Shown one piece after another: positions 13,227-15,775 of a stretch of DNA of 32,000 nt (its first letter is position 1; every line of letters begins with the position of its first letter). This DNA is from Candidatus Hermodarchaeota archaeon (GTDB lineage: Archaea > Asgardarchaeota > Heimdallarchaeia > Hodarchaeales > Hodarchaeaceae). The stretch lies in the NCBI GenBank assembly GCA_048886185.1, contig JBHLKY010000002.1, forward strand, positions 120,001 to 152,000. Direction: 5' to 3'. Position numbers and translations under genes: made by a program. Under the pieces are notes generated by a model, which did not search any database, was not told the DNA's origin, and saw only the letters and a list, made by a program, of their open reading frames with translations.

Positions 13227-13859
13227 CTAAATGATTTGTACCATTGATTTTAAGCCTTTCAATCTTAAATCTGGTTTTGAAGGGTTTTTAAAAACTCTAG
13301 AAAGTGATTTTCCCTTAATAGAAACAATGATTTCATAAGTTCCAGATAACGATGTAGTTTGTGAAAAAAACCTCGAAAACTTACTCGATATTAATTTAGT
13401 TTCAGGTTGAAGAGAAAAGACTTCAACTAACCCTTGGTTGGGATTTAACAATCGCTCAAATTTATTTTGTACTAGTTTGTGTCGTAATGAAGGAGCTGTT
13501 GTCATTCTCAATCTCTTTATCTGATCTTTCTTATCGTTTTCCTTGAGAAAAGAATATGTGATTACCATAGGTGTTTGTACAATTATATCAAACTTTTTTT
13601 CTTCTGATTGAGTATTGAAGACAAGAATTAATAACTCGAATTTATCTTCAACTCTGATTTCTTCGGGATAAAACAATCTGAACAGTACTAATCCATCTTT
13701 TTCAAATGAAGGAATTTTTTGATTGTTAAATTTTTGATACAATTCCATTGGATCCGTAGTTGATCTAAAATCTTTAAATAATTCAAACACCAAATCTACA
13801 CTCCTCATATTTATTTTGTTAATATTGGTAAAAATACAACTTATAGCTTTATAACTCAT
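13227..13859 (-). CDS. Hypothetical soluble protein, beta-rich C-terminal part, divergent from actin
   Basis: 210-aa ORF; an alternative start is TTG at 13793 after TGAGGAG. Contains strand-like segments FELLILVFN and GTYEIIVSI. Confidence 0.7.
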   Translation of the reverse strand: MSYKAISCIFTNINKINMRSVDLVFELFKDFRSTTDPMELYQKFNNQKIPSFEKDGLVLFRLFYPEEIRVEDKFELLILVFNTQSEEKKFDIIVQTPMVITYSFLKENDKKDQIKRLRMTTAPSLRHKLVQNKFERLLNPNQGLVEVFSLQPETKLISSKFSRFFSQTTSLSGTYEIIVSIKGKSLSRVFKNPSKPDLRLKGLKSMVQII

Positions 13860-13917
13860 CTGTTCAGTTAAGATAAAGCCCCCTAAAAAAGAATTGAAAT
13901 TACAGTTACAATAGTTA

Positions 13918-13937
13918 TTTTAAAAAATTTTATAACT
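13918..13937. promoter_or_regulatory. Candidate back-to-back archaeal TATA boxes
   Basis: TTTTATAA at 13928-13935 on + preceded by an A-run (BRE-like), and TTTTTAAAA on - facing the divergent gene. Confidence 0.4.
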
Positions 13938-13959
13938 ACTCTCCGCCTGCAAATGAATT

Positions 13960-14526
13960 GTTATACGAGTCATGTTAATTATTTCTCTTTCATTTGAATA
14001 TCTCCCTTTCACTTTTTCCTCCCTTCCCCATAGTTTTCATGCTCGCGACTGTAAATAGTGTTCCCGAATGTATCCCATCTCTGTCATTTTTCATCTCATT
14101 CTCCCAATATTTCCTTTGTTCCCCATCCATATGGAGGTCTCCTGTCCCCTTTCCCGTAGTGCTTCTCATTTCGAGTCTTCTCCTAACCATTTTAACTTTC
14201 CCCGCCTCTTCTCCGCGTGTTGTCCTCTAACACAAACCTGTGGTGTCTTCCTCCTCCCATATTCCCCCCGCAGTACCCTTTTGTTTTTCTATCTATTTCT
14301 ATCGGATGTGTTGGGTGTTTCCTCTCTTCCGTAACTCTACGGGTGGGGTTGTAATACCTCTTAAAAACAAAACCAAAGGTTTTTAAATCAACGGAGAAGT
14401 GAGGTACTTGCATACGCAAATTAAAGGCGTCTCCGCTAGTTAAGTGAAACGGTTACTGAGACGTTTTTAAATGATCATTTGTAAAGTGATCTTTTTCTAT
14501 CGACAATCATTTTGAAGTGATATAAG
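13960..14526 (+). ncRNA. Candidate long 5' leader or ncRNA upstream of actin
   Basis: About 73% pyrimidine over 13981-14340 by hand count (96 purines in 360 nt). Stems at 14329-14342, 14355-14406 and 14421-14470 (13 bp including two G-U pairs). No convincing protein is encoded. Confidence 0.4.
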
Positions 14527-15669
14527 ATGTCAGTTGCAGAAGGAATTACTGGTAAACCCCTGGTCATTGATAACGGCACAGGGTTAAGCAAGAACGGTTA
14601 TGCTGGTGAAGACCAACCCCGCTCGGTATTCCCCACTCTAATTGGGTACCCTAAATATCAGTCGATCATGTCTGATGTTGACCACTATGTTCGTGAGTAC
14701 TATGTGGGCGAAGAGGCCATGAATTTACGTGGTGTTCTCAAGCTCATTTACCCTATTCTTCATGGGATCGTTACCGATTGGGATGCTATGGAAAAGATTT
14801 GGCATTACACCTTTCATAACGATCTTCGGGTCAATCCAAGTGAACACCCGATTTTATTGACTGAAGCTCCTTTGAACCCTGGAACTAACAGGGAAAAGAT
14901 GGCTGAAATTCTGTTCGAGACCTTCAATGTCCCCGCTATGTATGTGTCCATGCAAGCAGTCCTTTCTCTGTATGCTTCTGGACGTACCACGGGATTAGTT
15001 ATTGATGCTGGTGATGGTGTTATTCATATTGTCCCTATTTACGAAGGTTTCGCGATCTCCCATGCTATTAGTCGTATTGACATTGCTGGGCGTGACATTA
15101 CTGAATATCTTCGGCGTTTATTACGGACTCGTGGGCGGGCGTTGACCTCCTCCGCCGAGAAAGAGATTGTCCGTGATATCAAAGAACGCCTCTGTTATGT
15201 CGCTCTTGATCCTGAGAAGGAATTGAAGCTGGCAGAGAAAGTCTCTGGTATGGAAAAGCAATACACTCTCCCTGACGGGGAAACTCTCACCATTGGTCCC
15301 GAACGTTTCTTGGCTCCCGAAGCTTTCTTCAATCCAAGTGCTCTTGGAAAAGAAGAAACGCCCTTGGATGAAGCCATCTACAACGCTGTCCAACTCTGTG
15401 ATATTGACCTCCGTAAAGAACTCTATCAGAACATCGTCTTGTCTGGTGGCTCGACCATGTTCCCTGGCTTGAAAGAGCGTCTTCACAAAGAGCTAACTGA
15501 ACTCGTTCCTGATAATGTTGAGATCCGTATCGTTGCTCCTCCTGAGCGCCGCTATTCTGTTTGGATTGGTGGATCGATTCTGTCCTCCCTCAAAACCTTC
15601 CAACGCCTCTGGGTCTCCCGTAAAGAGTATCAAGAACAAGGCCCAACCGTCATCAAGCGAGCTATCTAA
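14527..15669 (+). CDS. actin: Eukaryote-like actin (Lokiactin-type Asgard actin)
   Basis: Collinear with conventional actin: [96 protein letters not shown]-like site upstream. Confidence 0.98.
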
Positions 15670-15670
15670 G

Positions 15671-15705
15671 TTCCCCCCTTCCTTTTTCTCTTCTTTTTTT
15701 TTCTT
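15671..15705 (+). terminator. Strong polypyrimidine/U-tract terminator of actin
   Basis: 35 consecutive pyrimidines starting 2 nt after the stop codon. Confidence 0.75.
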
Positions 15706-15775
15706 GATATATGCTGGTTCAAGGCCCGATTCCGTGAGTGAATACGTTTCTCCTTTTGTTTAAATTACCACTAAC

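Follow-up and report, generated by a model that had tools for sequence, protein, structure and literature searches.

Structured 5' leaders that bind proteins or stabilise the message are known from abundant prokaryotic mRNAs, for example the ribosomal-protein leaders and the archaeal L7Ae K-turn leader. On the DNA side, the archaeal core promoter consists of a purine-rich BRE, an 8-bp T/A box and a pyrimidine-purine start about 23-27 nt further on, and activators of the TFB-RF1 or Ptr2 type have a conserved site a constant distance 5' of a TATA box that is functional but has a poor BRE. Actin is the signature cytoskeletal protein of the Asgard archaea. A literature search found no report on the control of actin expression in these organisms, and nothing relevant on Asgard start sites, leaders or non-coding RNA was found either. 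For comparison with the locus described here, the activator TFB-RF1 (PF1088) of Pyrococcus furiosus controls a very small regulon from a site 5' of weak BREs (PMC5937170).

Here we analyse the region upstream of an actin gene of a Candidatus Hermodarchaeota archaeon of the order Hodarchaeales. The window, which is the whole stretch of 32,000 nt that was analysed, corresponds to positions 120001-152000 of contig C2 in a 4.8-Mb assembly; all positions below are those of the window. A first-pass annotation had flagged 14321-14513, just 5' of the actin start codon, as a structured RNA element with mutually exclusive helices, suggestive of a riboswitch-like regulator or an attenuator. Comparison with related species suggests a different arrangement, in which a promoter is followed by a conserved leader.

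Materials and methods

Actin loci were taken from 40 related genomes, 80 metagenome contigs and 80 GTDB genome contigs, and the upstream DNA was extracted. The base-by-base alignment comprised six close species; pairing in helices was counted in the same six species and L009 (seven species). Lineage-wide comparisons of promoter, box and hairpin cover 21 lineages. The identity at four-fold sites of actin in the six close species, 0.59, was used as the neutral yardstick. Loci and genomes are referred to by L and G numbers, respectively.

Results

The actin gene at 14527-15669 matches Pfam PF00022 with an E-value of 2.5e-133. Its upstream neighbour, a minus-strand open reading frame at 13227-13859, has no Pfam match, and the intergenic region between the two is 667 nt long. 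A repeat or mobile element was considered for these 667 nt and rejected, since they have no match elsewhere in their own genome. Actins 97-99% identical are found in MAGs labelled Hodarchaeota, Heimdallarchaeota or Promethearchaeota, including Ca. Hodarchaeum mangrovi. The GC content of the gene is 0.44-0.50, against 0.26-0.33 in its neighbourhood, which is consistent with the strong codon bias of a highly expressed gene.

The DNA upstream of actin could be aligned in the closest species only, and synteny around the gene is absent among relatives. Because the neighbours are not syntenic, the conserved upstream module belongs to actin and moves with it. When the neighbours were compared across relatives, no regulator gene linked to actin was found.

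Some further features of the locus were recorded. A tract of 350 nt upstream of the actin promoter (13980-14330) is pyrimidine-rich on the + strand and can be aligned with the closest species only; its GC content is 0.43-0.47 compared with 0.28 in the flanks, and it has a strong negative GC and AT skew. Positions 14128-14137 (CATATGGAGG) are complementary over a long range to 14253-14262 (CCTCCCATAT). The versions of the two segments in L004-L008 are ATATGGTTCG and CGAACCATAT, which means that in the lineage of the window three or four positions of each side have changed, and a third segment of the relatives, GGGTTCG (at about 14305 in the window, where it reads GGATGTG), can pair with the same CGAACC. 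This complementarity could reflect an RNA structure in a transcript from a start further upstream, or old terminal repeats. The 3' flank of actin (15670-15710) and its equivalents in L004-L019 are C/T-rich with several T runs of the CCCCCYCTTTTTTTCTTCTTTTTT kind, which are probably poly-U terminators; in composition this flank resembles the pyrimidine-rich tract upstream of the gene. Universal primer-site patterns detected no 16S rRNA gene in the G000 assembly, and ARAGORN with default settings gave only 11 tRNA genes; this MAG either lacks part of its RNA genes or has intron-bearing tRNAs.

Sequence identity varies strongly along the flagged stretch (Table 1). Judged by an identity of 0.61 against 0.59 at four-fold sites, its first third appears not to be under selection and to lie outside the conserved module. 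The selected module comprises 14373-14496 together with the Shine-Dalgarno (SD) site, which in all relatives (AAGTGA/GGTGA) is placed 5-8 nt 5' of the ATG. The constrained span includes the 5' arm at 14414-14439, and thus exceeds what a 20-bp protein site would need.

Table 1. Features upstream of the actin gene (window positions) and their sequence identity in six close species
Feature	Position	Strand	Identity	Sequence and remarks
First third of flagged stretch	14321-14372	+	0.61	Contains first-pass hairpin 14329-42 and two 5' helix arms; neutral-like
Core promoter P1	14373-14387	+	0.90	BRE-like CCAAAGG (14373-79); TATA box TTTTTAAA (14380-87)
Initiator-like element	14405-14413	+	1.00	TACTTGCAT; invariant TTGCA; predicted start G14410
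5' arm	14414-14439	+	0.87	
Main leader hairpin	14421-14470	+		Conserved core GCGTCTC (14427-33) with GAGACGT (14458-64)
Actin box	14440-14459	+	0.91	TTAAGTGAAACGGTTACTGA; invariant core GAAACG (14446-51); apical in main hairpin
Segment after the box	14460-14472	+	0.91	
TATA-like box	14464-14472	+		TTTTTAAAT; outer 3' arm of 13-bp stem; possible proximal promoter P2
Third hairpin and U run	14473-14496	+	0.79	GATCATTT/AAAGTGATC, then U5 (14492-96)
Segment after the U run	14497-14513	+	0.53	
SD site and actin start codon	14514-14529	+		SD GAAGTGAT (14514-21); ATG (14527-29)

The sequence at 14373-14410 is predicted from its geometry to be an archaeal BRE/TATA/initiator promoter. A purine block (AAAGG/AAACC) with a TTTWTAA box is present in 19 of the 21 lineages, including L029 of another family. 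The TATA box is followed by a spacer of fixed length (17 nt) and variable sequence and then by NAC-TTGCA (again in 19 of 21); across the genus, TTGCA lies 20 nt past the end of the TATA box. In the window, the pyrimidine-purine step T14409/G14410 lies 23 nt after the TATA box, and the sequence conforms to the archaeal core promoter in BRE, TATA box and initiator. Transcription would start at about G14410, and the leader would measure about 117 nt. Genome-wide, TATA-like words occupy a broad range from -130 to -30 and, with only 11 tRNA genes found, do not discriminate between this TATA box and the second, TATA-like one; the words enriched in promoters of this genome are similar to AAAA[AC]TTAT.

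All sequence features listed in the first-pass annotation were found where it had placed them: the hairpin CCGTA/TACGG (14329-33/14338-42), the helices TACCTC/GAGGTA (14355-60/14401-06) and TTAAAAAC/GTTTTTAA (14361-68/14379-86), a 13-bp stem with two G-U pairs (14421-33/14458-70), a palindrome (14469-80) and the sequence CGGAGA (14392-97), which is complementary to 14430-35. The + strand of 14321-14513 folds with a minimum free energy of -46.4 kcal/mol (z -2.30, three of 200 shuffles being equally good) and the - strand with z -1.32, so the region does fold better than shuffled sequence, but modestly. Folding the parts on either side of the predicted start separately gave a z of -1.65 for the upstream half and -2.0 for the predicted leader.

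Conservation supports one of the four helices, the 13-bp stem, in which 89% of cells are paired in the seven species; the three upstream helices, with 51%, 60% and 68% paired cells compared with 31-50% in slid controls, are not kept. The stem has six invariant pairs, four one-sided changes that preserve pairing (of the type G-U to A-U and C-G to U-G) and no double changes. Its outer A/U pairs are broken in relatives by the variants TTTATAAA and TATTTAAA, and the conserved portion is a G+C core of 7-8 bp only. Covariation was seen in none of the four helices within this close group, for which the alifold covariation term was +0.98. The argument that the G-U wobbles point to selection on RNA turned out to be weak, because one of the two G-U pairs is G-A in three relatives and the U's concerned are part of the TATA-like box. 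Nor could the mutually exclusive helices be upheld. The 3' arm GTTTTTAA is the TATA box of P1, and CGGAGA and the helices within 14329-14406 are situated upstream of or inside the conserved core promoter; with a start at about G14410 they would be outside the transcript. The competing sequences are either promoter boxes or change as fast as neutral sites, and the pairing of CGGAGA is uncompensated in L004 (CGGAAG against TCTCCA) and in L009.

Searches for known RNA families in the whole window gave no match in Rfam 15 at the gathering score, and a permissive threshold applied to 13860-14600 returned only noise (E 0.7-1.5). Scans for tRNA and tmRNA found nothing; an intrinsic-terminator scan reported 0 terminators, and the sigma-70 promoter scan run alongside is uninformative for an archaeon. 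A C/D box sRNA was rejected, as CUGA is unconserved (CUGU in five species) and the Rfam snoRNA match had an E-value of 1.5 only. A K-turn of the L7Ae type was also rejected: the stem strand GGCGUC is followed by UCC-GC, with no GA after the 3-nt bulge. Evidence in support of a riboswitch-like or attenuator function was not found in these analyses.

The most distinctive part of the leader is a 20-nt box with the consensus TTGASYGAAACGRTNNCTGW across relatives. It always lies 80-122 nt 5' of the actin ATG (genus g1 and G022 of family f2), and it was found in every member of the genus with available upstream DNA, in G022 and twice in L038. Pattern searches located one non-coding copy per genome, at actin, with reversed-pattern controls giving about zero matches. 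A wider regulon was rejected, the matches away from actin being within open reading frames apart from one chance-like intergenic site. Across the order, the box is single-copy and specific to actin. Around the 3' flank of the gene, neither a second box nor pairing between the 5' and 3' untranslated regions was found. We also noticed that AAGTGAAACGGTKTTTG recurs at the 3' end of an orthologous open reading frame of about 340 aa in L217, L218 and L220 (G007, G010 and G008), where it encodes the peptide ...PESETVFAITEEG...; this is a coding coincidence and no second regulatory site. The box is neither self-complementary nor palindromic. Mirror-image or duplicated copies occur in L019 (G001, G016) and L038, and the inverted partners of the box are 15, 30 or 6 bp away, centre to centre, on either side. 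A palindromic operator of a dimeric archaeal transcription factor was therefore rejected, there being no inverted half-sites at constant spacing.

An inverted repeat is present at the box in all 21 lineages (mean z -2.5 on the + strand, -2.1 on the - strand), and its construction differs between them. The window's clade pairs the two flanks, GCGTCTC and GAGACGT, and carries the box at the apex. Sequences of the L010/L015 clade involve the box directly, with GTTTCAC upstream as its partner, and also pair RTATCTG with CAGATAY; in L009, L019, L038 and L029 the partner is downstream, and in L019 this partner is the mirror copy of the box. The 5' arm CGTTTC of L009 can pair with GAAACG or with GAGACG. 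Pairedness of the box in the window's type is 0.48 versus 0.60 in shuffles, i.e. it is presented in a loop; elsewhere it is 0.70-0.84, within stems. No conserved multi-helix aptamer was found: the linear 20-nt box alone is kept, and the surrounding helices are lineage-specific. An invariant box without a constant RNA context fits linear-sequence recognition (e.g. of double-stranded DNA) better than it fits a fixed RNA fold.

The hairpin was followed further in an alignment of ten species of the L010 type, where 81% of cells are paired compared with 26-47% in slid controls. Six of 17 pairs have changed on both sides, and none of 500 shuffles matched the observed covariation. The relatedness of the species means, however, that there are few independent double-change events in this clade. 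With two doubtful edge pairs left out, the + strand has 10 G-U cells against 4 A-C cells, and this excess favours the actin strand.

Thirteen nucleotides after GAAACG, a second TATA-like box (TWTWTAAA, 14464-71 in the window) is found at this fixed distance in 18 of the 21 lineages; it is missing in L019, L038 and L029, where the actin box persists. It has neither an A-rich BRE nor a conserved initiator, its variants disrupt pairs of the 13-bp stem, and the start predicted from it in the window's clade falls in the run of U5-U8. It may be a proximal promoter dependent on a factor at the actin box; another possibility is that the leader is single-stranded and A/U-rich here.

The third hairpin together with U5 is terminator-like and possibly causes a pause or partial stop. 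Its GATCA/TGATC stem is kept in six species with G-U variants. The U run, of 5-8 residues, is present in five of seven close species and absent from L007, L009 and the other clades; since there is no T run 5' of actin outside the window's clade, transcripts from the distal promoter should read into actin. Two other candidates in this part of the leader were rejected. The ATG at 14471 opens a frame of 14 codons in the window and of four codons in L005; in L004 it is fused to another frame and in L015-type sequences it is absent, so a leader peptide or upstream open reading frame is not conserved in relatives. The sequence AUCAUU (14506-11) can pair with AGUGAU of the SD site (14516-21; 6 bp, 4-nt loop) and would mask the ribosome-binding site; this helix occurs in this genome only and is unconserved in relatives, and SD sequestration was rejected.

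Discussion

The flagged stretch is best read as a neutral spacer followed by a distal actin promoter and a conserved leader of some 117 nt that carries an actin-specific box. The earlier idea of a conserved cis element tied to actin is borne out, and so is the presence in it of a genuine conserved stem; its location on a transcribed leader is probable, the start being predicted from the promoter geometry. The BRE-like/TATA promoter at 14373-14387 would start transcription near G14410, and the leader would contain a small 5' hairpin, the main hairpin with the box at its apex, the A/U-rich TATA-like stretch, the GATCA hairpin with U5, and the SD site. Box and hairpin on the leader RNA would dock a dedicated factor that governs how stable the very abundant actin mRNA is or how well it is translated, and the hairpin would act by protein binding, not by ligand sensing. 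We put forward such a docking site tentatively, with somewhat less than even confidence.

Conservation, the geometry of the promoter, the specificity for actin and, in one clade, the upkeep of the hairpin with compensatory changes were observed directly. We infer the start site, the reading of the box at the RNA level and an effect on expression. Hairpin potential at the box in all 21 lineages, though built with different partners, speaks for the leader RNA, as do the two-sided changes and the G-U excess in the L010-type clade and, in the window's clade, one-sided changes that maintain pairing on the + strand. Against it stand the folding scores, which are nearly equal on both strands, and the stem of the window's clade, which has no double compensatory change; moreover, if the TATA-like box 13 nt past GAAACG were the real proximal promoter, the stem would be upstream of its start.

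A site in DNA would account for part of these data in another way. GAAACG is invariant whatever its RNA pairing context, as might be expected if a dedicated transcription factor bound the box, either as an activator just upstream of the weak-BRE proximal promoter or as a roadblock for the distal one, in which case the leader hairpins would be secondary. The constant 13-nt distance to a TATA-like box that lacks an A-rich BRE agrees with this, as do the mirror-image and duplicated copies of the box, and a precedent exists in TFB-RF1, an archaeal activator with a tiny regulon at weak BREs (PMC5937170). We consider a DNA site only slightly less likely than docking on RNA, but a number of observations are hard to fit. 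The box is not a palindrome and its inverted partners have no constant spacing or orientation; three lineages keep the box without the TATA-like sequence; the proximal promoter would have no conserved initiator and, in the window's clade, a predicted start within a T run. No actin-linked regulator gene accompanies the site, and the compensatory changes and the G-U excess would be left unexplained. Docking on RNA and binding to DNA are not mutually exclusive.

Two further possibilities concern the U run. In the window's clade conservation ends there (0.79-1.00 before, 0.53 after) and the predicted proximal start is just past it, so the product of the distal promoter might be a small RNA in its own right, about 87 nt long (14410-14496) and ending at the hairpin and U5, with actin itself transcribed from the proximal TATA-like box. 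We regard this as improbable: other clades keep promoter, box and hairpin without a T run, so that the transcript must read through, and the element never occurs apart from actin and neither belongs to an Rfam family nor has the features of a C/D or K-turn RNA. The hairpin with U5-U8 about 30 nt before the SD site could also belong to a riboswitch-like RNA or an attenuator whose exclusive helices let a ligand or signal switch the expression of actin; the two alternative partners of CGTTTC in L009 and, in the window alone, the masking of the SD by AUCAUU would be in keeping with it. However, the competing helices are in or upstream of the promoter and neither conserved nor compensated, there is no conserved multi-helix junction and structure depends on the lineage, the U run is missing in L007, L009 and all other clades, the SD-masking helix is unconserved, and neither an Rfam match nor a conserved upstream open reading frame was found, which makes a switch of this kind very unlikely. 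The remaining weight falls to chance or other explanations.

Within the preferred reading, in which a factor docks at the box and hairpin of the leader RNA, the factor might be a cytoskeletal one, either an actin-binding protein or a sensor of the monomer pool that docks at the GAAACG box and tunes actin synthesis to the state of the filaments. This is a speculative extension with little probability. If true, it would amount to post-transcriptional autoregulation of actin in the closest archaeal relatives of eukaryotes, with a feedback logic comparable to eukaryotic actin or tubulin autoregulation. More practically, a single-copy, strongly constrained 20-nt box that appears only at actin, together with a defined promoter, is a concrete bait for finding the regulator. 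The locus also holds a lesson for annotation: a long "structured" upstream region can be mostly promoter and leader, and helices that include TATA boxes should not be taken for RNA switches.

Compared with known systems, the actin leader resembles riboswitches and intrinsic-terminator attenuators in its 5' position and, in the window's clade, in its hairpin and U run; it differs from them in having no conserved aptamer, covarying alternative helices, Rfam match or conserved U run. It is similar to the TFB-RF1 site in that, in 18 of 21 lineages, the box lies a fixed short distance 5' of a TATA-like box whose BRE is poor, and in that it would serve a very small regulon. The actin motif differs from that site in sequence, no homologous regulator was identified, and the box falls within the predicted transcript of a stronger distal promoter; the proximal TATA box is missing in some lineages. 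With the structured leaders of abundant prokaryotic mRNAs it shares conservation between promoter and SD site, a hairpin with a short invariant sequence, and the restriction of a single-copy element to one gene. It departs from them in that the box sits in a different structural context from one lineage to the next and has only a postulated binding partner, and from the L7Ae leader in having no K-turn signature; the gene under its putative control is actin.
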